DNA of 59,818 nt, filler included, from Sluysia triapertura (Eukaryota), in NCBI GenBank assembly GCA_046118255.1. It is 4 parts of 4 records of this genome, joined end to end, with 100 filler letters (N's around TTAATTAATTAA, not from the genome) between each part and the next. Parts side by side here need not be neighbours in the genome. Positions count along the whole stretch, not along the records: positions 17,289 to 29,429 come from JBJNIA010134732.1; 3 more parts are not named here. One strand, 5' to 3'. Shown here one piece after another: positions 8,131 through 38,991 of this stretch; positions within the stretch are counted from its first letter, which is position 1, and each line of letters begins with the position of its first letter. The notes beneath the pieces are model-generated. The model searched no databases, was not told the DNA's origin, and was given only the letters and a program-made list of their open reading frames with translations. The position numbers were made by a program, and so were the translations under genes.

Positions 8131-8408
8131 TATATTTTTACTCGCGCGCGTAAATCAATACTTCCAATTTTTCTTATGACATATTCAGAACATCAGTTTT
8201 ATCATTAACTTTATATAAAGATGTTCTGAAAATACATTTGGTATGTTATATTTGTTTAGTAATTCATGTAGTGATATTAAATCTTCTTTACTTATTTCTA
8301 ATAAAATAGCACTAAATTGATTGGACAGAATTTTTACACGTGATTTGAATTTGTATATTCGTAAACCAAAACATAATCATAAACAAAATCATAGACATCC
8401 AACACATT
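8131..8408 (+). repeat. Dispersed ~280-bp repeat, copy 1
   Basis: Near-identical to 10362-10650 (e.g. CAGAACATCAGTTTTATCATTAACTTTATATAA...TTTACACGTGATTTGAATTTGTATATTCGTAAACC). Confidence 0.9.
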
Positions 8409-9879: not shown

Positions 9880-10090
9880 TAGCGAATGCATTGATTTGAC
9901 TTGAGACAACGCCACACATAACTGTTCACAGGAAAAATGGGAGAATTCCTACTTTGTTAAAAGTTTATCCTTCAGATAAGTGAATAGGAACGGCTTTCGA
10001 TGAAACTAAAAGAGATTTTTGGTAGCAAAAAGAGTTTTCCTGCAAAACGTCCAGTAACAACTTCACAAATTATAGTGTTTGATATGAAAG
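9880..10090 (-). mobile_element. Helitron/PIF1-type helicase C-terminal remnant
   Basis: Minus-strand translation SNTIICEVVTGRFAGKLFLLPKISF...SEG*TFNKVGI...EQLCVALSQVKS matches SQGQTFxKVG...GQLYVALSRV and the copy at ~33000. Confidence 0.7.
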
Positions 10091-10361
10091 TTGTTTATTA
10101 GAAAATTAACTTACAAAATGAACGTCATCTTATGGTTTGCTTGTATTCTTTGAGAGACTTAACTGAAATCTTTTAATTGAAATTCTTATTTAGTGTATGT
10201 TTTTCTGAGGATTCAATTGTAAAATTTTATTAGTTTTATCTATTCATGAGATTAACATATTGGGATAAACATTAACTTTTCTATAAACAATCTAAGGGTA
10301 GTTATATTTATATAAATTTAGTAGATAAAAATGATCGTGCTAAACCACAACCATTCCATAG

Positions 10362-10650
10362 TATATTTACTCGCGCACGTGGATCAAATACTTTCCAATG
10401 TTCTTATGACACATTCAGAACATCAGTTTTATCATTAACTTTATATAAGGATGTTCTGAAATTACATTTTGTATGTTATATTTGTTTAGTAATTCATGTA
10501 GTGATATTAAATCTTTTTTGCTTATTTCTAATAAAATAGCACTAAGTTGAGTGGACAGAATATTTACACGTGATTTGAATTTGTATATTCGTAAACCGAA
10601 ACATAATCATAAACACAATCATAGACGAACATCAACATAGTCCAACACAT
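10362..10650 (+). repeat. Dispersed ~280-bp repeat, copy 2
   Basis: Near-identical to 8131-8408. Confidence 0.9.
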
Positions 10651-13600
10651 TAATCATAAACAAATCTTAAAAAAACTTTAACACGATCTTACACAAAATA
10701 TCAAATCAACAAATTACGTACATAAAAAAAGAAACAATCTTCATAAGACATAAAAAGGCAAATTCAGAATATCTTGACAATAACAGTCATAATAATGTTA
10801 ACGATACATATTTCAACAATTCCCTATAGCGACCAACAGAAATTTAATATTATTTTAGTATTACATACGTTGTGATTTCAAGATGCACGTAAAGCAATAA
10901 GTTATCGTTGTTTGGTTGTCTCGCATTAACAATATCAGCAGTTGGAAATATTTTTTAGTTTATTCTAAAGTACTTGGTATTTCTCAAATTATATACACAT
11001 GTTCATTTGGATTCAAACGTATAAACGCAAAATTAGCCTTATTTTTGGCTTATTAAATTATGTTCACATTTTTTGGTAATTGCAAAACCAACATAAACGG
11101 GTATATTAGGTTGTAGGATATGCGAACAATATCAAAAGATCTCTTTTCATGCGGTCTTTTACCAGCTGTTGGCTTATTGATATTTATGACATTTATCAAT
11201 GTTTTATGTTAAATACATAATTATGTTATCATATTATTTAGCTCAGATGCGAATAGTCTTGTCGTATACATATTGTGAATCAATTTTAATATGAAAGATG
11301 ATATATTGTACTATTAAATTTATTTTGAGAGTAATAATGCACCGCTTATATTAGTTTTCATTTATATAATTGTTTGCTAATTCAATGATTTTATAGTGTT
11401 TTACTAAAAAATATCAAGTTGTAAAAAGCTATAAACAAAAGTTTGTTTACTATAATACTTATCGATATTATATAAACCTTATGAAAATATTTATTTCTTT
11501 AAATTATGTCTTTATTCCTTTAAAATAGAAATTATAATAATATGATTGTAAATACTAATTTTAATAAATCAATATTAGAAAATGTCAGTTCTTATATAAT
11601 AGCATTTTTTCAATTAATGATAATACAACAATAAAATACGGAATATGACTTTATATTTATGAGTAGAAATCAAATTGAGAAAATTTCATCAATATATTCA
11701 TAACCGTGATCGTAAGTATCTGTCAACATTAGTTTTGTATTATTATCGTTATACGTTACTAGATTACGCACAATAAATGCACCCGGTTTTTATTCAATTT
11801 TCGGTATTAGTGTAGACCTTGCTTATATTTTTTCGTTTAGAAATTAATCAAATTAATATTACTATAGTTGAAAATGAGTTTACAGTTGTATACCAACTGT
11901 ATAAAATTCCATCATATTTTGATGAAGGTGATTATATTATAAATACACAAACACGTTATTTAGATGGTGAACATTAGCTTGCAAATTATATGAAGCCTGT
12001 ATTTGTTGATACATTTGGTTTTTATTATCCAAATTCGTTTTATTCAAATTAATAGTCCTGCACATGTCAATAGACAAAATATACTAACAAAATGTTGTTG
12101 ACAATTATGTATTTTAAGGTTGCATTACCAAAAAGCTGGCAATTAATTTTATTTAAATATATCTTAGTGCGTTAATTGTCTTTTTTATTGGTATAAACAA
12201 AAAAATTAGTGGGATGAAAAAAATGTAAAATGTATTTCGTCTTCATTGATGTAGAAAGTTTTGTTAATAGTAAAATCAAATTATTAATTAAATAAAACCC
12301 TAATCTTTCGCAGTCACTAAACAATGAAGCATTCATAAAAATTTCCAACATAACTATTAACAATAAAATTTTCATAAGATACACTTCGAATTGCAATTCT
12401 ATAACAGTTTTAAATTTAAAATTCATTTAAAGTTCAATTTTCAATCAGTCATAAATACAAATCTTTATCATCAATCAATCAATTATTAGTTTAACCTATA
12501 CAAAGAATGTGATATTAAGTATATTTTCAAGTATACGAGTGATAAAGTTCGGATTATGATTCATAAGAGTTAGAGTTCTTCGGACATAAACGAAATTGCT
12601 TCACAATCAATTTAACTTTACTTCATTCGAGATAGTAATTTCAATTAGTAATTTTAGTTTTTTGTAGTAATTACTATTTTGCTTTGACTATGAAACTTTC
12701 GGAGGTCATCTTTAAACATACTCTATCTTATCATTATTTCAGAAAAATATTATTGAATAAACCAATATTTGTAGCATTTGTCAGTCCAAAAGTAGATAAC
12801 CTATCTAGATTTTTCAAAATAAAATAAGATTTAAACTTGGATGAAATCTAAATTGAAGTCTGAATCTGCACTAATTTAAAATAAGAACTTTGAATAATTT
12901 TAAATTCCATTTTCAACACGAAATCGAAGTTTTGTTTGCCATTTATTAATTTTCTTAATTACTTTGTCGATTTCTAATATAATACTTAGAAAACACAATT
13001 GTGTATTCAATCTTACCAAGAAAGTCATCTCCGTAAAATTTTTTTATAAAATTGATGTTTTCGATAAAATTTGTAATTGTCACTAAATAAGATTAAAACT
13101 CTCATTCATAATTCCATTAATTTTTAACAGTTGTGATCACCTAAAGATAATTGTTATAAGGTCAACCCTACTAAAATGTCATAAGTGATTAATCACAAAG
13201 ATTTTGTAAACAATTAATTATATAATAAATATATAATAAATAATTAAGTTATTTATTACAAATATTTGAACCATAATGTTACTATTAAATAAACTAATTT
13301 AATATTCATGCAATTTTTATTAATTTATATAGCGATTGACTTTCAAACTACCATAGGGTCCAATGAATCCCATTGTAAATTACACTAATTATTTTCCAAT
13401 AACATATTACATGGAAATTGTTTTAACTTCCTGACTTTTTATATAGTAGATCATTGAGTTTATTTACATGCACATTTATTTGTGTTTATTAATATGTAAT
13501 GCATATATACCTTTTTGGTAGACGGAAGGTTAAACTAAGCAATTTAAAGTGTCACATTTTTACAATTAAACAATTATAAATAAAACTATTTTTTATTTTG

Positions 13601-15997
13601 ATGATAATACAAACAAACGATTAATTTGTAATATGTAATTTTTCAGAATAAATGTTCAACCTTGTTCAATCAATTTTCTTAGAAATATTTTATTAGTATT
13701 TGTACTTAAAATAACATTTTAACATTTTTAATCTTTAATGTGCAAAGATAATCTTTATTTTATAGAAAAGGTAATATAACACTTTGTACATTTGTTCAGA
13801 AATGAAATAATCTTCACAGATTCTTCTCAATTCCCTTATAAATGTTTCTCCTTCATTAGTATCATAAGACAGTTTCTCAGTAAAAATGTTAATTCCATGT
13901 TATTTCTTAAATTTTATTAACTAAGCACCACTAAAGTTATCTCGTTAGAAATAATATCATTCTTTTGTCTCCATACTGCTTCTCATTGAATATATACATC
14001 TTAAAGATCAGGATAATCTCTGATGATATTGAATATCTTCATTTAACTTAATAATAATTAATAAACTGTGAAAAGAAATTGGAATTAGTCGATATAGTTG
14101 CTTTAATAATTGTTTTAGTAAAAAAGTTACTTATAACTAATAACTAATAATTTATTTATTTATTTTTGCTTAGTGTTTACATTAAAATAAAATTACTACT
14201 AATAATAAAACACGAACATATTATATTTTAGTCTAATCTATAACCTATATTGATTAAAAAGTGCTTAATTATTAACGATTTTTGTCATCTCTGATAGAAG
14301 AAAATTGACAGAACTTATATTGTGCATTTATTATTTATTTTGAAAATGAGTCATAAATTTCAGTGAAGTTGAATAAATTTGTGAATATAATATATTTATT
14401 ATTTATAATCTCTGTAAAACTATTTTTATTATTATTTTATAATAATAATTATTATTAAAAGATGTAAAATTTTTAATATAACTTCAGCAGGCTTTTTCAG
14501 AATATAATTAAAAATAAAATAGAAAAATTATGTGTTTATATTGAATGATTTAAATTACAATCCAGTGTCAAACTATGAATCGAATAGTATCGAAGTTATT
14601 ATTAAAATATGAACGCATTAAGAAAAAGAAAAAAGATAGTTTGTTAATACAAATTGGTGAAATTTGTAAATCATTGGATAAGGAATTAGAAATTAGAAAT
14701 TAGAAATATCATCTAAGGGAGTGTCTATGATAAAAGTTGAAGTGGATGTACAAATCAAAACTTCAGATTAAAAATTAAATGCGGAGAAATAATTACACAA
14801 CAAACTAGTGGAAGTGTTCTAGACATTAAAAGAATTTTAAAAACGCAAAAATAAATAAATAAACCATTACCGATAATTTTATTGGTATTATTACATATTA
14901 AACACTTCTCCAAATCTTTCACTCACCGACAAAACATTTAATACATTTTAGATTAAATGTATTAAAATATGAATTGTTATAACTTAACCGTTATTACAAC
15001 CGTTATTATTATCATTATTATCATCGTTAGCACGATTATATTATGCTTCCTAAATTGCATTTGATTTAATACCTCAATCTGCTAGGTCATATTACTTAAA
15101 TAAAGATAAAAATGATGTTAAAGAAAAATTGACAAATTATCTAAAAATAAAGAGCAAGCTGCGAAGGAAACAAATCAAAGTATTCAATTAGTTTGCATTT
15201 ATTTTATTTCATAACTGAGCAAAAATAACAGTAAAACTAAAACTTAAATCATAGATCTGAAAATGAAGAAAATATCGAATATAAAGACAAAAGAGTAAGA
15301 ACAACTATGGATATTACAGATTTCACTATAAATTTTTTAAAATAACCTCAATAAAAATAACTGCTTACAAATAAATTTTCAGAAAATATTGAAAATTAAA
15401 TACTCAAAGAATTTTGTTTAATTTATATTCGTAATTTGTACTCGTATTTGAAACATATACTTGTTTTATGATATTGCTTTTGTTAAGATATATTTTTATT
15501 CTACATTTATGTTTTATTTATGTTATTTATGTTTTATTTATGTAAATAGTGTATATTTTTAATATTATCAATTTTAGTATATCAAATATCAAAAAATATA
15601 TTATAATTAAAAATCGAATTAAATAAAAGAAATACTAAAAATATAAAAAATATTTAGAAATAATAATTAAATTAAAATATTTAGAAATAATAATATTTAG
15701 AAATATTAATTAAACAAGGGTTTGTTTAAAATAATTAAAGATAAAGTTTTGTTTAGTCAAATTAATTTCCAAAATGGATGCCGATAGGAGAAATTTGATA
15801 TAAATACACGTAAGAAATATATTTTTACCATTAAATTTTTATAGCAAATTAGAAAGTAGTTTTTTCGAACAAAAATTTTTAACAAGCTTCCTGTTACAAA
15901 GAAGATAATCCAATTTTCCATGTCGATTAAGTAACTTATTATTATTCATCCTAAAATCATACTAAAATCAGACTTCAATTCTTAATTATTTTTCTGT

Positions 15998-16405
15998 ACC
16001 AACACCTTAAAGAGGGTTTGGTAATATGTACTTAAAATCATACAATAATCAATTTGATATTGAATTATTTTAAAATCTTATTATTATATTTTGTTTACGA
16101 CTTATTGTACTACACTTTAACTTGTATCCTTTGACGTTAAGTAATATATTGAGTTAAGTTCAATTTGATTATTCTTTCATTTTTTAAAATATTAGACTGC
16201 TTTTCAACAACACCTTAACAAAAGGGTTGTGAAATTTATGAAATAAGCTTATCGAATAAAATATCTTTTTCTAACAACACCTTAATAAAGGGGTTGTGAA
16301 ATACATAAAATCGAATATTTATTTCAAACAACACCTTAATAAAAGGTTTGTGTAATTTATTGATTTTTTGAACAGCATCTTAATAAAATGGTTGTGTAAT
16401 TTGTA
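15998..16405. repeat. Five irregularly spaced copies of an AACA(A)CACCTTAATAAAGGGGTTGTG-like motif
   Basis: Copies near 15999, 16205, 16272, 16327 and 16370. Confidence 0.75.
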
Positions 16406-17188
16406 AAATCTGAAATTAAAATCAATTATTTTATAATTATCACGTTTCCTCATTTAACCAAATTGCATTGTAAGACATAAGTGTAAGTTTCCTAAAATCC
16501 TAATAATACGTCTCCAACAGTGGTATAAAGCATATATATTAGGTGGACCGACTCCTCAGATAATTTGCAAAATAAGTTTTTAAGACGAAAGCTTGCATAA
16601 GGAATACTTTGCTATAATATTTTAAGTTTTATAATTACTGACTTAGTTAAATTAAATTTTGATAAGGAATATTTTGTCATAGTTATGTAGAATTTTTGTA
16701 TACACCCTATGTGGAGGAGGTTGTAATGTTGTACCAAGTGGTTAGTTGTTGTACCCCATAATTTGTTTATGATTATCATGTAGATGAGTATTGGATAAAA
16801 TACTGCTGTTACATTAAATACTTTGCAATTAATTGAAATATGAATTTTATATGTATTAATTGAGATCATGATTGTTTATTCTATTATTTTAAAGTATGAT
16901 GTATAAGACATTGATGTCTTAATATGAACATTTAAAATTCGTATAAAATAAAATTCAAATTTATGAAGACAAAATTTACGACTATTTATTTGTATAACAT
17001 AAAATGGTATGAAATTGTTAACTAATTTAAATTTTGTTAATATCTCTATATACACTCTTTCGTTCTGGATCCTCGATTCGTGGACTTGATGAATGACAAG
17101 ATTACTATAATTAAAAAAATTATAAGAATGGTTATAAAAGTAATCATAATAAAATTGTAATATAAAAGAATTACCTAAGTTCATAATA

Positions 17189-17288
17189 NNNNNNNNNNNN
17201 NNNNNNNNNNNNNNNNNNNNNNNNNNNNNNNNTTAATTAATTAANNNNNNNNNNNNNNNNNNNNNNNNNNNNNNNNNNNNNNNNNNNN
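17189..17288. other. Artificial contig spacer (44 N + TTAATTAATTAA + 44 N)
   Basis: Identical 100-nt layout occurs three times; the linker puts stops in all six frames. Confidence 0.95.
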
Positions 17289-17606
17289 CTAAAATCCATA
17301 AAATCAAAAGACCTCTTAAAATATTGAAGTAATAAATTATTAAACTAGATTTTTTGATAAATAGTCCTAAAATAGTTTTAAAATCCAACGGTTGGCCATT
17401 AAGTTGGTAAGCCCAATACGTTGGTGAACTCACCACTTATCTTCTAAGTAGTTTTATTCACACGCAGATCTTACAAAAAGAAGGCATAACGTAATAATTA
17501 AATTACATTCATTTGGAATCTAGATTAAGCTAGATAAAAATCTGATTAAAAAAGCACTAAAATTTTCACAACCTTATACTGTTGTAAGGTACTAACTACT
17601 TTTCAT

Positions 17607-17607
<1 letters not shown>

Positions 17608-17665
<58 letters not shown>
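17608..17665. repeat. (AAT)n microsatellite
   Basis: Direct inspection. Confidence 0.95.
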
Positions 17666-17667
<2 letters not shown>

Positions 17668-18947
17668 TTATTATTATTATTTGACATTGTTATGATAGTT
17701 TTATCATGCATCACATTACTTTTTATTGTGAATATAAATTTGGACTTTATTGTTTTAGTAATACTGGAAATAGTTAATAGCATAAATTAAAGTTTCAAAC
17801 TTATAAGTATAACCTAATATTATAATAGCAATAAATTATGGTCAAATATAATAGTAATTAATATGTTAGACATGATCAAGGAAACAGTAATCGATAAGAA
17901 TTTTGAAAGATAAGATCTTAAATAATGACCCATTTAAAAAATTTGTGGTATGGTAATGACATAAAAGTCTGCTAAACACATAGACAGATAATTGATGAAT
18001 TTAATACTTACGGAATATCCCACAGATACGTCGTGGTTCCGCCATCTTAAATCGTAGACTGTAGGCGAACTCATTGTATTTATTTTGTAAGTTTAAGTAA
18101 AAGACACAAAACTTGCAGTTGTAAACGTGTAAATAATATAAATAAATTTATAAAATACTATTGTCATTCTTAAAAATCCATATCCATTTTATTAACACCA
18201 CATACAAATTAATACTTACTGCACCAATAAGAACAATCTATACCAATTCAAATTAAGAGCACATGAGTAAACAAGTAAAAGCTTCTTTATTTTTTTCATC
18301 TGTTTAATCGAAGCTAAAAGAATTTTCTACATTTAATTATGCCTATCATTAAGAAATTTATCACTTTCTTTTGAAATTAATATTCAAACACTGAACGAAA
18401 TTTAGAGGATGGTAAATAAAAATTACTGGGTGGTTTTAATTATGTGATGAAATTGAAATAGCACATCGACTTCAATAATATTGTTTTCCTCTAGCTCGTT
18501 ATCATCCAATGCCATCTTCAACTTCTAATAAACTCTCATTACCATTACTATCATCAAAATTTAATAAAATTGTTACATTTATTTTAGCTTCTCTAATTAG
18601 CCGACTCATTTTAAATTAAAAATTTTAATGATAAACTAATAATAATAATAATAACATTTTTTGTTTTGCGTCATATGTGTGTATATTGATAAGAATAATA
18701 CCATTTTCAGCATATTTTCATTGTTTCGGTATGGGAAAAAAGTATGTTTTTTAATCGATTAATCGATAATGACATAAATGTTTTTACAGATATTATAGAC
18801 GCTGAAAGTGCAATATATTTAAATGCATGTTATTAAAGTTAATGATATTTTCTTTAATCACAACTATTGTATTTATAAGCGTATTAATCAATGGTATTAC
18901 TAAATAATCATAATAATGATAAAAGTTTTAGAACAATAATAAATGCA

Positions 18948-18948
18948 C

Positions 18949-19005
<57 letters not shown>
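18948..19005. repeat. (AAT)n microsatellite
   Basis: Direct inspection. Confidence 0.95.
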
Positions 19006-19006
<1 letters not shown>

Positions 19007-21099
19007 TGTAAAAATATAATGCTAGTAACAATTATTTAAGTAATGCTATTAATAAAATATTTTGAAAATATTATTAGAAATAAGCAATAATAATAAAACA
19101 TAAGCATGATTGGGATGTATATAATTTAACTCTGTTAATTTTAAATGAGAAACCCAGTAAATCAAAATAAGATTAAACCTCAATTATATAATATAATTTA
19201 CCAATTATCACAATAAATATAAATTAAATCAATAATCTACATAAGTATTATAATCACGAAATGTTGAATTAAAAATCATAATTATAAGTTAATTAAAAAT
19301 TAGATTTATAGAGGACCAATACCATTAAAATTGAACGCAACCCAAACTGTACTACTTCTCAAATATTAAATCAATATAAAATGAAGTAATAACAAATCCT
19401 TACTTCTAATAATATTACTCAATGTTGTTAGACGAATTACAATTCCTCGTTCATGATCCCACTAATTTTGTAAAATTAGAGGCGAATTCAGCTCCTTTAC
19501 ATAGTAAATTTTAATCGCATTTATCTCTAAAATCTATAATTAACAAATAACACATGTAAATACAATAATTGAAAAGAGTAATCAGTTTAAATAAATAATA
19601 ATTTAAATAATTTAAATAGTCAGTTTAAAAATACATTGTAAATTTTGTAAATATTTTAACATTTTCTGACATTTTTTTAATATTAACAAACATATATCAT
19701 TTAAGATTTAAAATTTTAATTTAGTTTTTAAGTTTTAATACATTATTATAATTATTATTATCATATTATTATAATCATAATATGAAATCTTGAAAGTAAT
19801 ATCATGTACTACTTTATGATAATTTTAATTGAAATAATATTTTAATTCATACTATTTATTTGCAATTAACAACTTTTTTATTAGTCATAAATTCGCATCA
19901 TGGAAATAAAAAAAATTATTGCATTATTCATTAAACAAGCTAAAAAACGTATAAATAAGACGTGCAAAAGGATACTGCGCGCACAATAATACACGAAATA
20001 TGGTTTACTATACATATGACGCTACGCCACTTATTATCTTTTGGAAAATTTTTAGTTACAATTTGTGTTGGCAAAAGTTTTAGTGGAACATTTCAAAGCA
20101 AGTCAAGTTGTACAAGGATCATCTCAAATTACAGTTGCAGAAGGATCATATCATATTGAATCAATTTTTCCATATTATATATAAAATCTTAAGTTATTTC
20201 CTGTTAAGATTTTTAAACTATAATATTTAGTTTTAAAATATTACTAAAAATCTTTAACAATTTTGTGGTCAAGAATTAATTCTGACTTAAAATAATTTCT
20301 AAAATAATTAAAATCTAAAGCCTAGCTCCAGAACAATTTGTTACCTTGTCTATAAACATATTTACATATATTTAAACGTTATCTATTTATATAAACATTT
20401 TGTTGATAAAAAATTTGTTTTATTACATTTGCTTTTTGTTGTTTATTAGAAAGTTAAGAGAATTAGATTGAAGATTTGTTAAGGCACTAAACTAGAGATT
20501 TAAGTAATAGCCTAATTTTATAGAATTGAGTAAAGTTGATTTTAATAAAAGTAAATTATATAAAGTTTAGACGTTAAAGTGCATAATTTATAGTTGATAC
20601 TTTTAATATCGAATAAGTTATATTTCGCTTCATGTAAGGACCCTCTTTACGCACTATATTTAGCTGTAACTCTGTCTTCCATATGGATATTACAGGCGAA
20701 CCCGTAAGTAAAAATTAATTCAAGTTAAGTTTTTAAGAAAGAACACAGCACATACAATCTTCATAATCTCAGTTCCTATCTTGGCACGAAATCAATATTA
20801 ATTACTCAAACTAAATTATATTAGGCTAAATTAAAATAATAAATTTAACTAATTAACTTTACATTACACGTTCTTTTATATGTTTCAGTAAACACATCTT
20901 AATTTGAAATAATGCAATGTATTTCTTCATATAATCATCAACTTCCATTAACCCTTATGTCTACCATAGGTCTTCCTGCACTATTATAATTATTAATTGT
21001 ACAGGTCATATAAACTAAATTTCTTGGAGGGGGCTGATATAACACTTGTTTTTTCATTAGTTTTGTTCAATATCAATTGTTTCTTTAGTTTGTTTTTCT

Positions 21100-22140
21100 C
21101 ATTCTTTAAAGCATTTAGTTGAGTGTGAGCATGATGATGTAACAGTAATTTAGCTAAAAATGGAAAACAACCAATTATTAATTTCCAAGTGAAACCTGAT
21201 ATTTAATAAATACCTATTACTGAAAGTATTTGAGATATATCATAAGAGCAATGACTTTAATTATTATGTATATACCTAATAAACCAGAAAAAGCTTGACA
21301 TATTATCAAGAAATTTCCCCAAATTTCTTTTAAGATATTATGTGCTGCTTTCTTAAAATGATCGGGTCCTAATAATAATTCATAATTTACTTTACCATCC
21401 TTTTCTACGATTGCTTTACAGACTATGTCTGTAAGTACTTTTGACCTTTTCATTGGAAATAAAATTTCGTGCCAAGATACTAGAATATCTTCGTTAGAAT
21501 AAATTCCTGATCTCTGAATGTTTTTGGTAGCTGAAAATTTTAATTTGGTTTAACCTTTGTTAAACCAATAATTTTCGGAGTTTTAACTTGGCTTCTGGGT
21601 GGTAAGGATATCCACAGATTATAATCAGTTTTGTATTCTGGAGCCATTACATTAGAACAATGTAATATCTTTGGTTTTAATTTATAGTTTGCATAATAGT
21701 TCCAGTAAATGGTTCTAAATAAGTATTTTGATTATTTGATTATTATACAGTAATAAGTATTTATATATTACTGTAATTCGTTAGTACATTCGTTTTCTTG
21801 CCTAATCTGTACTTCTACATTTTTACTTTATCCATTAATCTACCAAAAACTCCTTCTTCTAAAGGAAGTAATGGTGCTACTAAATCTGGATTAGTTATTG
21901 CTACAGCTAATTTTGTTCTTAGTATTTCTTTGCTTAGTTGACAATCTCTAGCTATCATAACTCGATAAACTTTTTCTAGGGACATCAGTCCTAAATGGTA
22001 ATAAAATCAATTTTATTGTTAAAATACGTATTTATTTGTAAATTTTTTGTATCTATCCCTTTCTTAGCTTGAATTATTGTCTTTTCTGATAAATATATTC
22101 CTTGATAATTTGTTTCTATAATCTCTATAATTTCTATAAT
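21100..22140 (-). pseudogene. env: env: C-terminal half of a chuvirus/Jingchuvirales-like (class III, gB-fold) fusion glycoprotein
   Basis: Frameshift-corrected translation: ETNYQGIYLSE...QINTYFNNKIDF/YYHLGLMSLEKVYRVMIARDCQLSKEILRTKLAVAITNPDLVAPLLPLEEGVFGRLMDKV/KNVEVQIRQENECTNEL...YLEPFTGTI...HCSNVMAPEYKTDYNLWISLP...RSGIYSNEDILVSWHEILFPMKRSKVL...IWGNFLIICQAFSGLLGIYIIIKVIALMI (TM). Confidence 0.75.
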
Positions 22141-22773
22141 AATTTCTTGTCATAAAAATATAAATCAATATAAGTTATATTAGAGTCATTTGACTTAAGT
22201 AATTCTATAATATCTTTTACTATTGAAGTTACTGGGAGTTCTATAGCATTATTAATAATTATACTTATTTTCATTAATTTTCATTATCTTTTCTTTATTT
22301 TTTGACCTATTTTCCTTAGTAATTTTCTTGCTTTAGTCTCTTATAAACTATCTTCCTTACTTAGAATAGCTAATATTAATTTAATATCATGTCCATTTTG
22401 TATACTTAGTTCTAAATTCAATAATTTGTTTAAATTTTCATTTAAAATTTTGCCATTTGCCATATATGATAAAAATTCCTCAACTTTTAGATCAGTTTCT
22501 TTAATTTTTATTTCTGGGGTATCTATTATTATTAGGTATTATTATTGTTACTGATTCCATCTCCTCTGATTCCATTTCTTCTGTGGCACTGTAATGCGCA
22601 TCTTCTTCATCTATCTCCATTTCTTCTGCTTGTAATTCTTCATCATCAGTTTCTTTATTATTAATAATATTTTCTATATATGTTTCTACTTCTTGGTCAT
22701 CACGAAGTTCTGAGTTATCTGATTGATTTTCTTCTTGATTTGTTTATTCTTCTGTTGAACGTGATTCTTCTTC

Positions 22774-22838
22774 TATTTCACCATCTATTTCATCATCTAT
22801 TTCATCATCTATTTCATCATCTATTTCATCATCTATTT
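22774..22838 (-). repeat. 12-bp tandem repeat encoding (EIDD)n within an acidic gag extension
   Basis: (TCATCTATTTCA)n on +; ORF 22744-22977 reads KEIDDEIDDEIDDEIDDEIDGEIEEE. Confidence 0.9.
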
Positions 22839-23449
22839 CTTTGTCAATTTTCTTATTTGGTTCAATTTTCTTTGTCTTTCCTTCCCATTTTTCAATTATT
22901 TCTTGAATTCTTTTTCTATTATCTTCATTTATTACTACTTCTTTTATTTCTTTTATTTGTTCGATTCTTTCTTCCAAAGGTCGAATTCTTGTATTGTTAG
23001 TCTATTTTCTTCTTTTTCTCGTTGTTCCCTTCTCTGCTTATCCTTTTGAAATTCTAAATAACCATCGTGCATGTAACTCATAAAGATTTCTTCTTGTTTA
23101 TTTTTAAATCTATTTTTATCACAGTGATATAGATTTCAGTGATATAGATTTCTTGTAGCATTTCATTCTTTTCCTCATCGTAATTAACTTAAGATATCTA
23201 TCATCTTCTTCATCCTTACTCATTTCTCTTCATCTTGGTTGTTTTTTACTCTTATTTCTTTCTTCTCGATACTGATATTCATCTTCATCTTCGCATTCAT
23301 TTCTGTTATTTCCATATTCTTTTTGACTTCCATCCCTTATTACTCTTATTATTATCATAATTAAACCTTACTTTCTTAGTAGGGCTTTGGTATCTTTATT
23401 GGTCTTGACCCCCTACTTTAGTAAAATCTTGAGTAAATACACTTTGTCT

Positions 23450-24480
23450 TCATTTCCTACAATCTCTTACATAATGTCCTTTTTTATTACAGTTCTCACA
23501 GATTATTTCTACATCTATATTAGTTTGAGTCTTATTATTATTTTCATATCTTATTGGACTATTCCTCTTATTCCTATTAAAGTTGGAACGAGGTGGCCAT
23601 CTAGGTGCTGGTCTTTGTTCATGGTTTGAAGCACTATAATTGCTTATTTTACTGTTTTGGAACGCTCTATTTCTATAATTCCTTCAAATACTTCTGTAAT
23701 TATTTGAGGTACTTCCGTAATTGTTTGAATTACCTCTATAATTATTTCTATAATTATTTGAAATAGAATTACCAGGCCTCTACTTGGGCTATTGTAGTTA
23801 CTGTCATTATATCTTTCATAATTCAGAGAATTAAATTTATTATCACCATAATTATTTATATCTCTTCTTAATTTCGGACTTTTATATCTTTTTTCTTCAT
23901 TGTCACTTATATAATCAATATTCTTCTTATTATTATTTTTATACTTCTTAATTTCTTAATTACTTCCTTAAAAGATTTTCCTTCTATTAAGGTGACATGT
24001 AATCCAGATTTTTAATTTATCTATTAATGTTATTTCTTTTTTATCTTCAGGGATTTTGGCTCTAGCAACAAGGCTTTTAAGAGCACAAGCATATTCATAT
24101 ACAGATTCATTTGGTTTTTGTATTCTAGTGTTTAACATTTTAGCATAATATTTAGCATAACATGTCATCGAGTGCTATTTCTTCTGTGAATGCATTAACA
24201 AATTCATTCCATGTTTGCTTATTATTATTACTTATTTCTTTATAGGTCTGGATAGCCACTCCAGTTAAATAATTTTGGATCCGTTTTATTTTTTATTTTT
24301 TTATTTTTATTGCGTCTGATATGCTTTCATAATCTTAAGATATTCCTCTGCTCCGTCAAATTTTTTAATTTCAGGTAATGCTATTATTGGACGCATTTCT
24401 CTGGTTAATTGCGCCATATATTCTTTAAAATCATTAGGTAAAGCCGTATAATTTCTTAATTTTGATCGGTAATCTTCGTA
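23450..24480 (-). pseudogene. gag: Ty3/Gypsy-type gag (capsid + N/R-rich linker + nucleocapsid)
   Basis: LPEIKKFDGAEEYL/KDYESISDA...IQNYLTGVAIQTYKEI...TWNEFVNAF...IQKPNESVYEYACALKSLVARA (major-homology-region-like Q..NESVxEY); multiple frameshifts. Confidence 0.85.
23459..23500 (-). other. Retroviral-type CCHC zinc knuckle (nucleocapsid)
   Basis: TGT GAG AAC TGT AAT AAA AAA GGA CAT TAT GTA AGA GAT TGT = CENCNKKGHYVRDC (CX2CX4HX4C). Confidence 0.9.
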
Positions 24481-24813
24481 AAGTACAATATACTTATCTA
24501 TTTTTCTTAAAACTTACTTAATCTATTAATAATCAGTTAGGGAATAATAATTTTGTTCACATTTAACTTATTCTTAATGAAATCGTGATATAATTATTCT
24601 AAAACTTCTTCTTAAATGCTTAAATGCTTAAATCTTAATATTAATTCTGAAATTATTCCTTAATTCAATATTAATCCTAAAATTCTACTTAAATACTTAA
24701 TTCTTATGTCAATTCTTCTTGAATACTTAATCTTTATACTTATAATATTTCAATACTGGTCCTCAAATTCTTCTTAAAATCTTTATGCTTATTTATATTA
24801 TTGCAATACTGGT

Positions 24814-24830
24814 CCTCACTCTGGGTACCA
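24814..24830 (-). promoter_or_regulatory. Primer-binding site (probably tRNA-Leu)
   Basis: Minus strand TGGTACCCAGAGTGAGG begins with TGG (complement of CCA) ~350 nt upstream of gag; resembles the complement of tRNA-Leu(TAA) 3' ends. Confidence 0.55.
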
Positions 24831-24840
24831 GTTTATTCTA

Positions 24841-25955
24841 TGTGAGTAATTTAAAGTAAAGTAATAGAATTAAGAAATAGTCCACGAGTTAGAGCCAGCC
24901 GTTGGATTTGTAGATAAAAGTAAAAGATAAAATGAATTTCCTCAAAATGTGACGTTAGTTGGAATCTTCTTTATTTGATTTTATTATTATTATTATTACT
25001 TTTTACTTTTTTGGAAGGTCTGGAGATGCATAAAAGTATATAATCAGAAATAATTTAATTGATATTTTACGTGGATCCTATGAAAGGATTTAATAGATAT
25101 TTTACGAAGTTAGAATTAAAATCTAATTTTAGGGAATTCGTTTCTTAGTATCAATTTTGTATTTAAAGCTATTTAATTTAGTATTAAAAACAATAATTTT
25201 ACTGAAAATTTTATTAAACCGCAATGAAAAAATTCTTACAAATAAAAATAATAATATAATGTAAAGAAGAATTACTATAGGTAATTCCTATCTAACTGAT
25301 ATTTTACTAAAAGAATTTTCGCGGATCTATTATAAGATCCAACTAGTTATGAAGTAATTTAAGTTGATTTTACGGTGATATCTCTAGGATATCTAAACTT
25401 ATTACAAATAAACTAACAGATTATCTTTTAGACAATTAAAGAGGGATCTGATGAAGGAAAATCGATGCGTTGACTGCTGATATGTCGAAGAAAACCATAG
25501 CAATTGTGTCGTTGAGTAATTGTGTAAAAATGGCCGTTAAAATTATTGCTAAAGATTGTTAAAAATTATTGTTTCAACTTGAGAATTATTCTCTCCTTAT
25601 ATATAAATTTTACTGCCTTTGGCCAGACCATTCTTTAGAAAATTTTAATATTGAAACAAAATTTTAAAATTTAAAGATTAATATTCAGAAATTAATATTT
25701 ACAAAATAAAAAATTAATATTTACAAAAATTCATAATTTAATATATACAAAATAAGACATACTTTTAATAATTATCCAGAAAAATAATTGTTCGGAATAA
25801 ACATAAAATTTAAAATGATCACAAAATATAAAAAAATTATAAAGTCCAAAAAAATCAATAATCAAAGTTTGATTTACATATAAAGTTCAATAAAAACAAA
25901 GTTTGATTTACAATATTTGATTTACACAAATAATAACAAATTTAAATATATATCA
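24841..25955 (-). repeat. Putative 5' LTR of the retroelement
   Basis: Lies just upstream of the PBS, ends ...CTCACA on minus at 24841, TATATATAAGGAG box near 25600 on minus; outer boundary uncertain, no partner LTR seen. Confidence 0.4.
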
Positions 25956-26627
25956 CGTAAGAACCGGTAAAAGGTTCCCAATTTTTATAGAAATGGATTT
26001 TAAGTGTATTTTGCGTGCGACACCTTCAGGTATCGAAACCTTAACAAAATAAACTAACGTAAACTATTTTGGAAAATCGACAAGGATGAATTTTAATCGG
26101 TTAATTGTCTTCTTGGTTGTATAAAAGTTATGAAGATTTTGATTAAGAATTCGTGGAAACCGTGGAAAATTTATCGAGTAGAGCTGCACCGAAAAATAAA
26201 AAAATTGTGTCTAATGTTTTTGTATGCTATTTTATATACATATCTTATGCTGGCCTTAGCCTTTTAATATAACTAAAAAAGAAATTTATTTAATAATGAT
26301 TTGAAAGTATTTTAATAATATTAAAAATACTTACGTTAGTTTAATTTTTTTAAAACTTCAGAATTCAAAATTTTCAAAATAATTAATCACAAATATTAAT
26401 TGTTATAAAAATTAAAATCCAAATTATTAACCAATAAGTAACAAATCAATAATACAAAATTAATAAAACATACATGTAATAAAATTTGACGAATGTTAAT
26501 AGCTTTTCACCAGACAAGCACATATAATAGTTTTTTTCAGCACACATTAATAGTTTATTTCTACAATATAAAACCTATTTTAAAATTTTACTGGCCAACA
26601 TTAATTTGGACGAATAGTGTAAAAGTG

Positions 26628-26629
<2 letters not shown>

Positions 26630-26668
<39 letters not shown>
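26630..26668. repeat. (TA)n microsatellite
   Basis: Direct inspection. Confidence 0.95.
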
Positions 26669-26671
<3 letters not shown>

Positions 26672-27781
26672 CTAGCATAATGTTTATTGAATCAGTCTAT
26701 ACACCAAGACATTTTGGTGGTTATTTATATCATTATTCATATGTATAAGTCCTAGTGCATGATGCAAACGTTTTATACATTATTTTAGTTTACTTTGTAT
26801 TGAATTTATTTATTGATAGTATTAGTTGGTCACAGCTGAAGTAAATGAGTTAATAACATCAAGTCTAAAAATACAACCATTTTATTGTTTTAATTAAATT
26901 ATATTTTATTATTTTGAAATTTTGAATTATATGAATTATGTTTTTTTAAAAAAATCGAAAATTTATTTTAACAATTATGTGCTTACGGCACTTAAAGTTT
27001 AAAATTAAACCGTTGAAATCATTTCTTTCTTGCCTCCGAGGGCGGTTAACGTAAAAATAACAAAAAATTCTTTTATTCGTACAATAAAATTTGTTGTAAA
27101 TCAATGTTGAACTGCTAAAGACTAAAACAAAAAGGATCAACAACAGTAACTAATCCTTCAGGATCAGGATCAAATTGTTCGTCGATGTCCAACATCTTGC
27201 CGAACGTCGCGACTCCGTCGATCTTTAAGACAGCCCACTGCAAACGAAGGAGTAAATCTTTTTAATTAACCACGTTTTTTAACGTTAGCAATTTCTAATA
27301 AAGTCCGAATTTGGTGGGCTATTGTTCCACTTCCATGCACAACTTGATTAAGTGTATTCTCAATACTTATCGGTACAGTATCCTCGTGAGAAGGTATATC
27401 ATATTCTTGAATTTGATGCATTGTATTAATTCTTGGGTGTTCTTGAGATGGATGAGTACCACGAAGTAAGCTGGATTCGTAGTATGTAGGATTCAAACTA
27501 ACAGATGAAGTCGAATCCGCATTTAAATTACTGATTACTAATTTACCAAATAATATCCTCGCTCGAAGATAATCATTTATCGCCAAATTATATTCACTTT
27601 ATTTTATATTTTCCCTCATCTTAAACGACAATTTAAATATAAAACTATAGCGTTGCAAAACACCATAAGCTGATCGGACACAATCAGTAATTAAACGCCG
27701 ATCCAATAATTTTTCAAACATTTTATGTGCAGCTTTTTTACAATTGCTTAATGAACTATGAAGTTCATTTCTTTCTAAACT

Positions 27782-27919
27782 TGATTGAATATCTATCCAA
27801 GTTTCTTTTGGATTATCCCAAAACATTCCAGTTGAATTATTCGCATTATGAGCCAACAGAACTGGGACAGAGCAATGTAATACCATGGAACTATCTAATT
27901 CGTATTCAACTACATTTAG
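27782..27919 (-). pseudogene. GANAB: Fragment of glucosidase II alpha subunit (GH31) embedded in an unrelated ORF
   Basis: LNVVEYELDSSMVLHCSVPVLLAHNANNSTGMFWDNPKETWIDIQS parallels GANAB LDVFxYELxNPMALYGSVPVLLAHN...GIFWLNAAETWVDI; flanks do not continue the match. Confidence 0.8.
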
Positions 27920-29429
27920 CTTGTCAACATTAGCATAACTTTTAAAATCAATCATCCTCTTAGATTGCACAAATTACACCTACTTTAATCAGGAATCACA
28001 TAGATTTCATCACAAAAAACCATATTAATAGAAAGCTCATTCACAACCTGCATACTGGTGCAATTTCATTTACAATACGACACAAATTCATAACAAAACC
28101 ATTAATATTAGTAACATTATAAAATTTTAACATTCTTTTAATAGTAAAATCCGAGTAACATCTATCATCATTATATCAGCATTTCAACACCACTCTTAAT
28201 ATATTTTTATTTTTTACCTTTCGTAAATTTGGCGATTTAGAGACTTATCTGCGATGTAATTTTTATTTATTGCAAATTACGACAATTAATAATTTATGTA
28301 CTAAAATTTTAACGAAATCACTGTCGTATTGTAAAGAAGTTATTGATACGTCTTCACAGCCACATCCTTCTCAGTCGTCATTTTTCCATTCGCTTTCATC
28401 AGTTTCAATTCAACTATCTGACATAGACGATTGTAATCTTCTTGATAAATCTACAATTGAATGTAATAATATTTTAGTTTCAAAGACCACATTAAAAATC
28501 GGCATCACATCATTTATTTTACCTCAAATACTCTTTAGAAATTCAAATTTAAAAAAAATAATAATAAATAGAAAAAAATAATGTTAACGTTGAGATGACT
28601 AATAAAAGTATCATTTAACTTTTTTTAAATGGAATTTGTATTGAGAATGTTTCAGTTTATGTATTGATTTAGTAGATAAAGCAGAAGTTTGGATATTTTG
28701 TTATCTTGGTAGATTTATTATAGTTATTCTGCTTAGGGTGCATGTTTGAATGTTTTTCCATTTTCCTACATAATGAAAGTTTATACTTTAGTTTGATAAA
28801 TAAAAATGTACAAACTATTGCCGCAATTAATTTTTACATAGAATTTATTTGTACAAGCTTATTTAATTAATCCATTATCATCTACAGACAACTTAATAGA
28901 TTATCTATTAAACAATGCACTTTTAAATAAACAAATTTACACAAAAAAATCCCTACACGTATGAGCTAGCATCTTTAATATAAACATAATTTTCTGTCTT
29001 TTGAAAATATTTATATTATATTTTGAACTAATTTATATAAAATTATGGGTAATAATTATTAAGGACACCTACAATAATGTTCATGAAGCACTATTAAGCA
29101 ATGTTTATTAATTTTATGAACTGTCTTTCATAAATAAATTTATAGTAATTAGTAAATTTATAGTAATTTATAAATTTATATTAATTAGTTCATGAATATC
29201 TATATTTTATTTTGTTATTTGTTAGAACAAACAATTGTTCAATCTTTTAATGTATAAATTTTTATGCTTTTGTTCAAATAATTTAAGAACTAGTGAGATA
29301 ATTTGTTTTAATGTTTAAAACTGTAGAAATAATTTAAAATAAAATTCCTCAATTTATTATGGTATAATGACTACAGGTTCAGATAAAGTAAGAAAAGCAG
29401 ATCTTTTATTCAAATTTGAAAAATTTGAA

Positions 29430-29529
29430 NNNNNNNNNNNNNNNNNNNNNNNNNNNNNNNNNNNNNNNNNNNNTTAATTAATTAANNNNNNNNNNNNNNN
29501 NNNNNNNNNNNNNNNNNNNNNNNNNNNNN
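29430..29529. other. Artificial contig spacer
   Basis: 44 N + TTAATTAATTAA + 44 N. Confidence 0.95.
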
Positions 29530-31245: not shown

Positions 31246-31329
31246 TAATTAATAAACTAATCTAACGACATTTTTTATTTATTTAAACAAAACCAAAAAA
31301 ATAATTTTACGTTAATAACTTTGTAATCA

Positions 31330-32064
31330 ATGTTTAATATTATATTTTTAACGATATTTTTGGTGAATGTTCGATCAATATTTATGATTTATCGCTTATC
31401 TGAATTTAAATGCCATCAAAATGGACAGCCAACTTTATGTATGCCAGCTTTTTTAAGTCTTCTTGAAAATGCACCTGTTCAGGCTAGTTCTACTTGCGGT
31501 ACTAACGGTCCTGAACAAGTGTGTCGCATATGGCCATCGAATACAAGTTCTATTAATCGTCAGTTTTGTAGTTTATGCGATGCACATTCTCCATTTAGTG
31601 CTTACCCTCCTCGGCACATTAATGATCGTCATGACACGAGAAATCAAACCTGTTGGTTCAGTGGACCTATTTTACGGACTCCTCCTTACAATATTGTCAA
31701 TATAACAATTTCATTAAAGAAAACTTATGATGTATACTACGTGGCATTGCAGATCTGTGGTACTATCCCAGATTCAATTGCTATATATAAAAGTGCAGAC
31801 TATGGTAATAATTGGGAACCATGGCAATTGTTTTCTAAAGATTGTTATCGTGCTTTTAAAATGCCTACGACAAATTTTATAAACAATCAAATGGGATTTT
31901 CGAATATTAAAGAAGTAACTTGTTTACAATTGTCTTCGAATATACTTTACAACGATTACGGAGAAGCACTTGAAGTGCTTGCTTTCAATACGGATTCAGG
32001 TAGAACACCTTGGTTCACGTGGACTGATAATTTACTTGACTGGATGACAATGACTGATTTAAAG
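31330..32064 (+). CDS. netrin: Netrin exon 1: signal peptide + laminin N-terminal (domain VI)
   Basis: Hydrophobic N-terminus; CMPAF, ASSTCG, CSLCDA, TCWFS, VNITISLKK..VYYVALQIC..PDSIAIYKSADYG..WEPWQLFS, LLDWMTMTDLK; donor AAG|GT at 32065. Confidence 0.93.
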
Positions 32065-32859
32065 GTTGTTTAAAAAGTATTAATCATTGTGTTTGATTAA
32101 AATAACAAAATTTATCTATGTCTAAATGTAAATTTAATAATATTCAAATAGAATAAATATTGAAGAATATTAAATATATTATGATTAATAACAACTTTAT
32201 ATTTTTAACTATAAATTTAAAATTTTTCTTTAATGTTACGAAAAAGAAAGTTATTTTCTATTTAAAACAGTTTTAATAAATTTGTGCTAGTTGGTTTAAA
32301 TGATTTATTAATCTTTTTTATGCATGTTATACATAATCTTTCAAGTCACAATGTTTGTATGTGACATATAAATAAGGTCTTTTTAATTATGTTAGCTATA
32401 AAAATTAGTGGCACATCAAAAAATCGTGTTACTATTTTCACGGAAAAAAATTTAAATTCAATCTTAAATTTCTTTTAAATAATTGTTATAAATTATTTTC
32501 AAAGTAACATTTTTCTTAAAATTATAGAAAAATAATTTAAGGATTTAAATATTATGTAAAATCTTATAAAGTTTCAAAAATCAAAAAATCTATATAATAA
32601 TTTGACCATTCACATTGAAGGAAACAGATAAATATAGAAATAAATACAAATTGAATTTTTATTTGATTATGAATCTCTTAAGTCACTTTGTTGAAATCTC
32701 GTAAAAACAATTCGACCACAGAAATATTTGGCGACACAATTCAACATATAATGGCATGCTATTTTGCCATTTTTGGTATTACAAATTGTTCAAAAACTTC
32801 CTTGAGAATTCATAATAATAAATATTATTGACCAAATAATTTGTGAACCAACAAAAGAC

Positions 32860-33956: not shown

Positions 33957-36525
33957 AATTAAAATGTATGATTGGTTTTCTTATTAAGTGATATCAGATC
34001 ATTTTTCAGAATAATTAATTATTTATATAGACTTTCGTTACTTAAAATAAATTACCTCAAAAGCTCTTTCCTTCGAGTAATAAATTAAGACAATTTCCCC
34101 TTTATTAACACCAAAACCAAATTTAATATAACACTCTACCGAATTTGTGGTGTTTCAACCTTAACTGATACGAATATATTGTATCAGTTACATATGCATC
34201 TATACATACACATACCACAACTTACACTCATTACAAAATACATTTAAGGAACATCAATATTCAGTATTATCCTAAGTCTGATAACAACGCATGACCTCAT
34301 AAAATAATAATAACCTTTTAAATTAATTTAAAATTCTAAATCTAGACACTAATAATATTTGACTCTAAATTTTGAGAATACTATAAGCTAAATTATTACT
34401 GCAATTCACATTGACATTGTCCTATTTATCAGTTATATTAATTTATGTGTATCTTTTAAATTACAATTGTAAACGCCAATACAATGTAATAAACTTAATT
34501 TTCATGATGTAATTAAGAACAGAATTGAATTGAAAAAAATTACGTTATGTACTATTAATTCTTTTTAACTATTATATACTATAACTTTTGTTAATCTGTT
34601 AAAGAATTATCAATCCAATAAACTGATGTTGATGATGTTAAAGCTAGATCGATGGCAGTGACGTTATTGATATCTTATTAATGCATTTTATGCGAGGAAT
34701 ATGTTGTGATGTCGAAAAATAGTTTTAAGATCAGCCTTAATGTTTCTTCATCGATTAACGTCATTTTAAAATTGAACAAAATGTCAACGGTTTGTGAAGA
34801 AATTCGTAATTTAGAAAATATAAAGAATACCAGTTATGATGATTTTGATTTAAAAGTGGGCTCCAAAAACCGCAACAAAATTAAAATCTGCATGAAAAAT
34901 CCAGAAGAGTCCAGCCTTTGAAATTATTAAAATTAAGAATCGTTAAAATAGTTCTACAATTTCATCATGAAATAAATGCACCTGTAATAAAATTTAATTC
35001 ATGAATGTGGTATCCGAATAATAATTAGGAAGATGATAATATTTGTAACGAATATTTTTAAAAATTTAGATTATTTTCTTTGGTTAGTCAAACATTATTT
35101 GGCATCATAGATTTGCTTATTAATCTTGATTTAAATAATTGTATACTCAATGTAAATGCTCTTTTGGATTGTAATAGAGGATTCAAGGATTCTGATTCAG
35201 AATTGTACTTATCGTACATTTTAAGATAAATATAGATTGTAAATTTAAGAAAATTTTGTATTTTAAATTTAAATATATTTCAATTATATTTATATTTCTT
35301 TACATTTGAAAAGAAATTTTATTTTAATATTAATGTTTTGTTCGAAAATTTTGATATTTTAAAAAATGCCTAAGTTAGCTTCAAAAGCCTGCTCGTAAGC
35401 ATATAAATTTATGAAAACTTATATGTTACTGTCGAAAAGTTAAATGCAATTTTGAAATAAGTAAAAATAGATTTTCTTCCTGCATTTTTGCCTACGATGT
35501 ATGATAGATTATTAGAAAACAATCCTAAATCGTTATTAATGGATGTTACTGCTGGTCTTTCTCCAGCTCTGGAAGCGGTAGACTTTGAAAGTGAATCGGC
35601 TTCAGTAAGAACCTCTGAAGTTTAAGAGGAAAACAAAGCACCAGTGAAGGAAATTTGCGGTTTGTGCTTTGTTAGACTAAAGATTAACGAATTAAATCAA
35701 TCATCGAAAGATCATGGAGATAAAATGCAGAGTTTTGGTAAAAAAAATTGTCCGAGTTGGAGAAGGTAGTTAAATGTCAAATTTTAAAATAAATCGAAGG
35801 AACATGTTACAGAAGGTGCCGAAACAGCGCAGCTAAGTTTGCAATCGAAGGAGATCCAAATTTTACCAGACGCAGTAACTTGCATACACCCTTTAAGGTA
35901 GTTGAGTATATAAATTTTGAAATTAAGTGTCATGATATGCCCTGTCGAGTTTGTTGCATTCTTTACGTCATACTAACAAACTTTTTAAATTTTATGATAA
36001 TTTTATTAAATACTTTTGTGTGAATACTAGGTTTTATGAAATAAGCAGTCTTTTTATTTATTTATGTTCTAAATTTTAAATTTGAATTTAAATTTCAAAT
36101 AAAGTTCGAGTGCCATAAGTACAAAAGTTAAAAACTAATAATAGTAATTATAGTAATTATAAAGCCCTTAGATAAACAAGACTACGGCCAAACAATACCT
36201 ATTAGCCAGGAATCAACCAATCAATCCCTCAAAACTTGTGTTCGCGCTAAACCACCTTGAGCAACTAATCAAACTTGTATCCGTGCCGAATCACTGGCAA
36301 ACCCTTGCGAACTATTACATACACTCTATTATAAGAAATTCCATTACATACATTATATTTGTCTGCAAATGAAAATTAAAAATTTCTTATCTCCAGGAAA
36401 TAGTGGCATCAGGAAATACTGGTTGAATTTATTAGTCTAAATTTAATATCTCAAATTTTCACGATCATGATGTAAAACTGAGACCTGTAACAAAACTGTA
36501 TCTTACAATCGAAGAAGCATCTTTA

Positions 36526-36730
36526 TTCTTTTCTGCCCAAGATTACTTGCATACATTGCACTCAGGATTTCATACTTTTATTTGATATCATTCTTTTCTG
36601 CCCAAAATTACTTGCATACATTGCACTCAGGATTTCATACATTTATTTGATATCATTCTTTTCTGCCCAAAATTACTTGCATACATTGCACTCAGGATTT
36701 CATACTTTTATTTGATATCATTCTTTTTTG
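36526..36730. repeat. 65-bp minisatellite, about 3.1 near-perfect copies
   Basis: Unit starts at 36526, 36591, 36656, 36721 (TTCTTTTCTGCCCAARATTACTTGCATACATTGCACTCAGGATTTCATAC...). Confidence 0.95.
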
Positions 36731-38648: not shown

Positions 38649-38991
38649 GTAAGTCTTATAAGGTTTCCAGATCAATCTTTATTACGTGGATCTGATGAAC
38701 ACGGGCGTGCTCCTGGATCAGCTGGAGAATATTATTTTGATTCAAGACATTCAATGCGATTCCACGACGAACCAGAACCTCCTATTGTGCATTACGGTTT
38801 ATCTGATATTGCAGTTGGTGGTCGATGCAAATGCAACGGACATGCAAATGAGTGTGCCGATGATGGACGTGGTAATGTTCACTGTGTGTGTCAGCATAAT
38901 ACTGAAGGTAAAGATTGTGAAAGATGCAAGCCAAAATTTCTTGATCGACCATGGGCTAGAGCAACTAAAAATAATGCCAACGCTTGTAAAC
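38649..38991 (+). CDS. netrin: Netrin exon 2: end of domain VI + first laminin-EGF repeat
   Basis: Acceptor TCTAG at 38648, phase 0 with exon 1 (TDLK|VSLIRF); HYGLSDIAVGGRCKCNGHANEC...CQHNTEGKDCERCKPKFLDRPWARATKNNANACK; donor GTTAGT at 38992; later exons not found in the window. Confidence 0.93.

Follow-up and report, generated by a model that had tools for sequence, protein, structure and literature searches.

The window analysed here is a 59,818-nt stretch of DNA from Sluysia triapertura (assembly GCA_046118255.1), in which four parts of four records are joined end to end. In the part taken from record JBJNIA010134732.1 (positions 17,289 to 29,429), six-frame translation places the remains of a retroelement on the minus strand. 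Along that strand run, in this order, a primer-binding-site (PBS) motif, gag, a CCHC zinc knuckle, an acidic linker, a helical plus ubiquitin-like module and half of an envelope glycoprotein (env), the C-terminal one. The element sits between the first two of three N runs that surround a 12-base spacer (17189-17288, 29430-29529 and 43533-43632), across which contiguity is not assured. The parts of the element and its borders are as follows:

24813-24830, minus strand: primer-binding-site-like motif starting TGG (read from the sequence)
24019-24331, minus strand: gag capsid region, split into two pieces that differ in frame and contain one in-frame stop (gag profile)
23444-23785, minus strand: N/R-rich stretch with a single CCHC zinc knuckle, the knuckle at about 23500-23459 (Pfam zf-CCHC, gag profile)
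22501-23001, minus strand: acidic low-complexity linker, 35% D/E, with two stops and a 12-nt tandem repeat at 22741-22860
22137-22499, minus strand: predicted four-helix domain, then a ubiquitin/SUMO-like domain that is C-terminally cut short, with three stops (linker profile, model of a relative)
21113-22125, minus strand: C-terminal 55% of an env of the herpes simplex virus glycoprotein B (HSV/gB) type, chuvirus-like and class III, in five segments over three frames, with two terminal hydrophobic stretches (PF24664, tblastn, profile)
20941-21066, minus strand: possible protease start, cut before the catalytic motif, unproven (position, and pattern by eye)
20936-24975, no strand assigned: deeply covered repeat block (summed contig depth)
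20828-20944, plus strand: separate repeat adjoining the 3' break of the element, sharing 72% identity with window 44206-44335 across 130 nt

Read in one frame with stops taken as X, the env remnant matches Pfam family PF24664 (Monjiviricetes_fusion) with an E value of 1e-14 and 53.9 bits against a cut-off of 27, and a natural open reading frame (ORF) of 110 aa within it (21549-21220) does so with an E value of 3.8e-16. By tblastn it is colinear with the polyprotein relatives described below. On a profile built from full-length relatives (609 positions), it matches from 273 to 607 only, and the first 272 positions are absent. Near its end lie two hydrophobic stretches (KD19 of 2.32 at 21294 and 1.71 at 21229). 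When the predicted model of an intact relative (P0011, mean pLDDT 65) was searched with Foldseek, the best match was HSV-1 gB (E 1.9e-13, at a low TM-score of 0.29), and all the matches listed were herpesvirus gB. The predicted fold, which is that of herpesvirus gB, confirms a class III fusogen for this env family.

For gag and for the linker, profiles were built from 12 and 14 relatives, respectively, and run over 798 tiles of the whole window, with 1000 shuffles for comparison. The gag profile matches, in order, 24331-24164, 24156-24019 and 23785-23444 (24-29 bits), and none of the 1000 shuffles reaches any of the three scores. Of the two capsid pieces, one scores 28.7 bits (profile positions 63-119) and the other 24.1 bits (121-168), and the CCHC-bearing piece scores 24.8 bits; the relatives from which the profile was built carry Retrotrans_gag or Ty3_capsid. 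A further piece upstream, 24310-24513, is not significant (41/1000 shuffles). An earlier profile from three sequences gave only 6.7-6.8 bits, the signal becoming clear with more relatives. Pfam alone is weak on the capsid (Retrotrans_gag, E 0.074 and 0.22 on two pieces, below cut-off) and recognizes the single knuckle as zf-CCHC (E 2e-5, 24.9 bits against a cut-off of 20.8). The window thus holds a gypsy-type gag with a CCHC knuckle, as in Ty3/gypsy elements (Metaviridae). No tRNA could be assigned to the PBS-like motif, and no tRNA gene is present in the window; the motif may be tRNA-Leu-like. A 29-nt direct repeat (24737-24765 and 24790-24818) duplicates part of the motif just downstream.

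What lies between acidic tract and env first resembled a module shared by four relatives, for which a four-sequence profile was marginal (iE 0.043). With 14 relatives, the linker profile matches 22454-22194 at an iE of 1.3e-5 over positions 16-108 of 150, which is the best of the 798 tiles and is reached by none of the 1000 shuffles. In the predicted model of relative P0052 (residues 220-373, pLDDT 89.5), four helices are followed by a ubiquitin/SUMO fold. Fold searches with this model covered the ubiquitin half only, and residues 75-154 of the model match SUMO/ubiquitin (Foldseek E 1e-4; VIA Z 11.3, rmsd 2.4, 78 residues aligned). For the helical half, to which no fold is assigned, Pfam gave nothing and Atlas no usable match; a TFIIS-N-like identity had been considered for it. 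The ubiquitin-like domain ends early in the window, and the 14 relatives have 87-408 residues between the module and env.

A preliminary description of the window had listed the PBS motif (TGG at 24830), a Gypsy-style capsid, a single knuckle, an acidic tract and a frameshifted chuvirus-like class III glycoprotein with a series of motifs, and all of these are present. It had missed the helical plus ubiquitin-like module and the loss of all but the C-terminal 55% of env. The C-terminal transmembrane helix that it named is there, as the first of the two hydrophobic stretches. Nothing was found in support of an element end at 25955, the deep block running from about 20936 to 24975 with no pair of long terminal repeats (LTRs). 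No Pfam match was obtained in 19000-21100 (minus frames), 24800-27200 or 10000-19000.

In order to find relatives, the 110-aa env ORF was searched against 1.84 billion representatives, which gave 50 matches, the best 12 of them 38-46% identical and most of these long proteins. The nearest relatives (42-46% identity) are single polyproteins that comprise gag, a ubiquitin-like domain, env, protease, reverse transcriptase (RT), RNase H and integrase, with a pol of the Ty3/gypsy type; the best solved match for the pol of P0052 is Ty3 Gag-Pol (E 1.7e-128). When the env portion of P0052 was used as a second query, 15 proteins of 2,099-4,057 aa were found. PF24664 occurs together with an aspartyl protease in 15/15 long relatives found by env, 12 of which also have RT, and env precedes the protease in all nine that were rescanned. 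Among 13 further relatives picked by env alone, a CCHC knuckle precedes env in 10, and the helical plus ubiquitin-like module is likewise found in 10. In the window, env follows gag with no pol between them, the position of pol after env being seen in the relatives only (9/9). None of the Pfam families that we take to mark BEL/Pao elements was named in any of the 26 related proteins scanned, or in the window. A word-based protein search with the env ORF found 0 of 107 candidates, and a viral contig scan gave no locus. Several of the relatives (P0007, P0068, P0071, P0075 and others) have two or three aspartyl protease domains; P0069 and P0070 have ankyrin repeats, and weak Bcl-2 matches stand just before env in P0011 and P0069.

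Taken together, these results indicate that the copy is very probably a decayed and internally deleted Ty3/gypsy-type retroelement of the gag-env-pol kind, namely a Burro-like errantivirus, in a likely flatworm host. The intact ORFs by which elements are listed in PMC13524379 are not found here, as there are frame changes, stops and a large missing part; the copy is therefore classed as a decayed member of the kind and not as an intact element. A flatworm is the likely host, since a netrin exon is nearest to Dugesia japonica netrin (52% identical, compared with 41% for a cestode and 38% for a flea), in agreement with the preliminary description. Two exons of this gene lie on the plus strand, at window 31327-32073 and 38649-38996, and are about 50% identical to Dugesia netrin.

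This kind of element is already known from flatworms. According to Chary and Hayashi (PMC13524379), platyhelminth errantiviruses carry only an HSV/gB-type env, in the order GAG-ENV-POL, and nine are named (Smed_errantivirus_1-6, Mlig_2 and Pcro_1-2) with 1-215 copies each, up to 215 in Schmidtea; ENV-POL candidates were also counted in Dugesia and Girardia, the chuvirus-like glycoprotein of Anakin having served as bait. Those elements and the one in the window have in common the Ty3/gypsy type, an env straight after gag, a gB-type env (PF24664 in the window, a predicted gB fold in P0011) that the paper relates to the Anakin/chuvirus glycoprotein, a flatworm host (a likely one for the window) and multiple copies. 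By eye, the env remnant starts with a 10-residue motif that has one mismatch to the end of domain I-II of Smed_errantivirus_4, and domain I-II motifs of the relatives match Smed sequences in the supplement of that paper. The published elements are intact, whereas the window copy is broken and without env domain I-II and pol.

A second group for comparison is the planarian Burro, which in the Burro section of Arkhipova and Yushenova (PMC6431247) is reported to encode gag, a SUMO-like domain and BCL2, with a mononegavirus-like env that precedes the protease in frame, and is proposed to be a provirus. Burro/GYPSM1 giant gypsy elements and the kind found here share a CCHC gag and a Ubi2/SUMO-like domain, and in Burro as in the relatives env lies between gag and protease; the Ubi2/SUMO-like family PF11976 is also matched weakly in relative P0070, and a domain of this type lies between gag and env in the window. 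Burro differs in having two or three knuckles, an ORF of 4,873-5,140 aa, a length of more than 25 kb and MATH, BIR, BCL2 and ankyrin domains, while the deleted window copy has one knuckle and none of these domains, and the relatives are 2,100-4,800 aa long, some with weak Bcl-2 or ankyrin matches. On account of the single knuckle, the element is called Burro-like and not Burro. Decaying fragments with stops and frameshifts have been noted in a planarian (PMC6431247), and BURRO1 is silenced by SMEDWI-2 (PMC8532177). The terms ubiquitin, Bcl, Burro and fibronectin do not appear in the main text of PMC13524379. Flatworm gypsy elements with a gB-type env between gag and pol are already published, and the claim of a new lineage in the preliminary description is not supported; the window copy adds one decayed family.

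Contigs from one public run were fitted to 17300-29400 at 80% likeness. This run contains 35% of the words sampled and is possibly the source of the window itself. In all, 14,678 contigs fit, 862 of them at 99% identity or more. Summed depth is 23,643-176,110 in all ten bins of 20936-24975, compared with 50-1,891 in 19 of the 20 other bins. The exceptional bin, 17300-17703, reaches 56,910 and contains a simple TAA run, which shows that depth by itself is not specific. These depths, which give no copy number, show that the whole block is present as many diverged copies, and in two diverged contigs the acidic tract continues into the helical domain. No RNA run was listed among those with the sampled words, which has no bearing on expression.

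The deep cover of all ten bins would fit a refinement, in which full-length helpers copy the deleted form in trans and the latter replicates as a non-autonomous family of its own; the retained PBS motif would also agree with it. Full-length copies would, however, yield equal cover, neither an LTR pair nor a polypurine tract was found, a separate repeat adjoins the 3' break and no listed contig crosses the junction near 22130, and we consider this refinement unlikely.

The preliminary description had proposed that a flatworm gypsy element captured a chuvirus glycoprotein afresh and independently, which could account for the matches of env to PF24664 and to named chuvirus glycoproteins (G). Moreover, the gag-env-pol elements are not a single clade in the pol tree of PMC13524379, which leaves room for several old acquisitions. 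The G proteins of three named viruses (Soybean thrips chu-like virus 2, Lishi spider virus 1 and Fushun oxya chinensis chuvirus 1) stand near the bottom of the 50 matches, at 28-29% identity over about 100 aa. The Jingchuvirales G belong to the same Pfam family as the window env, and the identity of the latter to retroelement envs is far higher. An env tree of 37 rows and 110 columns without an outgroup was built with 36 of the 50 matches; the other 14, which span the 110-aa query only partially, were omitted. On one side of a branch with support of 99/98 stand 18 rows, the three named chuvirus G all among them, and on the other the window with 12 polyprotein envs. Forcing the window among nine chuvirus-side rows is rejected at a p-AU of 0.005, for a group picked after the tree had been seen and again on 110 columns and no outgroup. 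The env is accordingly not nested in chuvirus G, as would be expected of an endogenous viral element derived from Jingchuvirales, on a short alignment and one placement. That it falls with retroelement envs and not inside the chuvirus clade speaks against its recent capture from chuviruses, which we regard as very unlikely; the tree is unrooted and does not give the direction of transfer.

Two other explanations are weaker still. The first is chance nesting, in which a chuvirus-derived endogenous viral element would lie beside an unrelated gypsy gag fragment. The abrupt start of env in mid-ectodomain would fit, and chuvirus glycoprotein insertions often adjoin fragmentary LTR elements, with gypsy fragments beside chuvirus-derived glycoproteins and no clear capture in the cases described in PMC10084718. 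Since gag, linker and env match the profiles of the relatives in order, such nesting is improbable: strand and order are those of intact polyproteins, the helical plus ubiquitin-like module is shared, env is nearer to retroelement envs than to viral G and deep cover forms a single block. It is already largely refuted, and gag and env are parts of one element, as had been supposed. The second, a BEL/Pao element like Anakin, hardly deserves consideration: Anakin, a mosquito BEL/Pao LTR element (Dezordi et al., PMC7642597), does carry a related PF24664-type glycoprotein and the window's own pol is missing, yet the relatives have a Ty3-like pol, the scanned proteins show no BEL/Pao-type family, and there is one knuckle only. 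Anakin itself has a BEL/Pao backbone and an insect host, and the window env falls outside the chuvirus-side sequences. The preference for a Gypsy-like over a BEL-like gag was well founded.

Several observations weigh against the reading as a decayed gag-env-pol errantivirus of a flatworm. Within the whole window no similarity to pol was found at an E value of 1, so the element's own RT cannot be classified, and neither a second LTR nor a purine run of at least 11 that could serve as polypurine tract was found, as is expected of a truncated copy. The putative protease start (21066-20941) is not significant, being equalled in score by 41/1000 shuffles and lying outside the top ten tiles. The junction between linker and env near 22130 is spanned by no contig among those listed, and all contigs come from the single public run and at the likeness given above. 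The relatives are metagenome proteins from ENA/JGI, one being filed under a bacterial metagenome-assembled genome; the branch that joins the window with 11 of the polyproteins is weak (70/77); and the gB match of P0011 has the low TM-score and pLDDT already stated. Furthermore, the host placement rests on one gene and six matches, and the suggested tie to the published planarian elements on architecture and on motifs compared by eye.

If the copy is a decayed errantivirus of this kind, its ancestor would have encoded one long ORF, to be cut by the element's own protease, and a membrane-anchored env would have wrapped gag particles and brought about their fusion with another cell, a course proposed for errantiviruses. 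Retrotransposition would have spread the family, and the copy would later have lost the stretch from the middle of the ubiquitin domain to the middle of env, as well as everything after env, and then decayed. It would now be inert, or at most a source of small RNA. In its deleted form the copy cannot replicate on its own, nor can it encode a working fusogen, as the signal region and env domain I-II, where PMC13524379 places the fusion loops, are gone. The potential infectivity suggested in the preliminary description does not apply to the window copy, in which 45% of env and all detectable pol are missing; for the family it is a hypothesis raised in PMC6431247 and PMC13524379. As found, the copy carries little weight, since planarian elements of the kind were described in 2019 and a survey across animals followed in 2026. 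The question of infectious particles in flatworm elements is not helped by a broken copy, and intact multi-copy Schmidtea elements are already listed in PMC13524379.

The relatives also point to a possible second membrane protein, in a part of the polyprotein that is missing from the window copy. An integrase motif could be located in 13 of 14 full-length relatives, and in 12 of these 13 the integrase is followed by a variable region of about 125-410 residues with two or three hydrophobic segments around it. This candidate second type I membrane protein, which varies between families, is seen in P0001, P0005, P0052, P0054, P0068, P0070-P0073, P0075, P0077 and P0078, and at L001:5200-6660 and L002:5600-7106. 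Its support as an FN3/Ig-like protein is weak and repeated: a short FN3-like motif in four relatives, Pfam Ig_3 at an E value of 1.5e-5 in P0079, sub-threshold Fn3 matches in L001 and L002, and an Atlas score of 0.90 with low recognition. Judged from the sequences, the post-integrase tail of the relatives is likely a second membrane protein, FN3/Ig-like in type. Fibronectin, immunoglobulin and accessory are not found as terms in the main text of PMC13524379, the Burro section of PMC6431247 does not name a post-integrase protein, and a literature search for such an FN3/Ig membrane protein found an unrelated paper only. It is conceivable, though we think it doubtful, that the lineage builds enveloped particles with two glycoproteins, in which a gB-type fusogen would act with a fast-evolving FN3/Ig-like attachment partner in the manner of gD or gH/gL with gB. 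If real, the post-integrase protein would be a candidate receptor-binding partner for a class III retroelement fusogen.

Downstream of the polyprotein, L001 (8592-9920) and L002 (9043-10371) each have a separate ORF of 442 aa that contains a DEDD/RNase_T exonuclease domain (E 6e-9 and 1e-11), preceded in both by an ORF of 461-490 aa of no clear family. The two ORFs are probably accessory genes of these elements.

Elsewhere in the window, a 240-nt direct repeat with 94% identity is found at 8157-8396 and 10387-10626, and a 65-nt tandem repeat in three copies at 36525-36739. On the minus strand at 27266-27973, an N-terminal piece of glycosyl hydrolase 31 (GH31) and a Sec5 piece lie directly side by side in one frame, which contains a stop. 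Several contigs of the public run differ at this stretch, and the two pieces are possibly captured or duplicated fragments of host genes.

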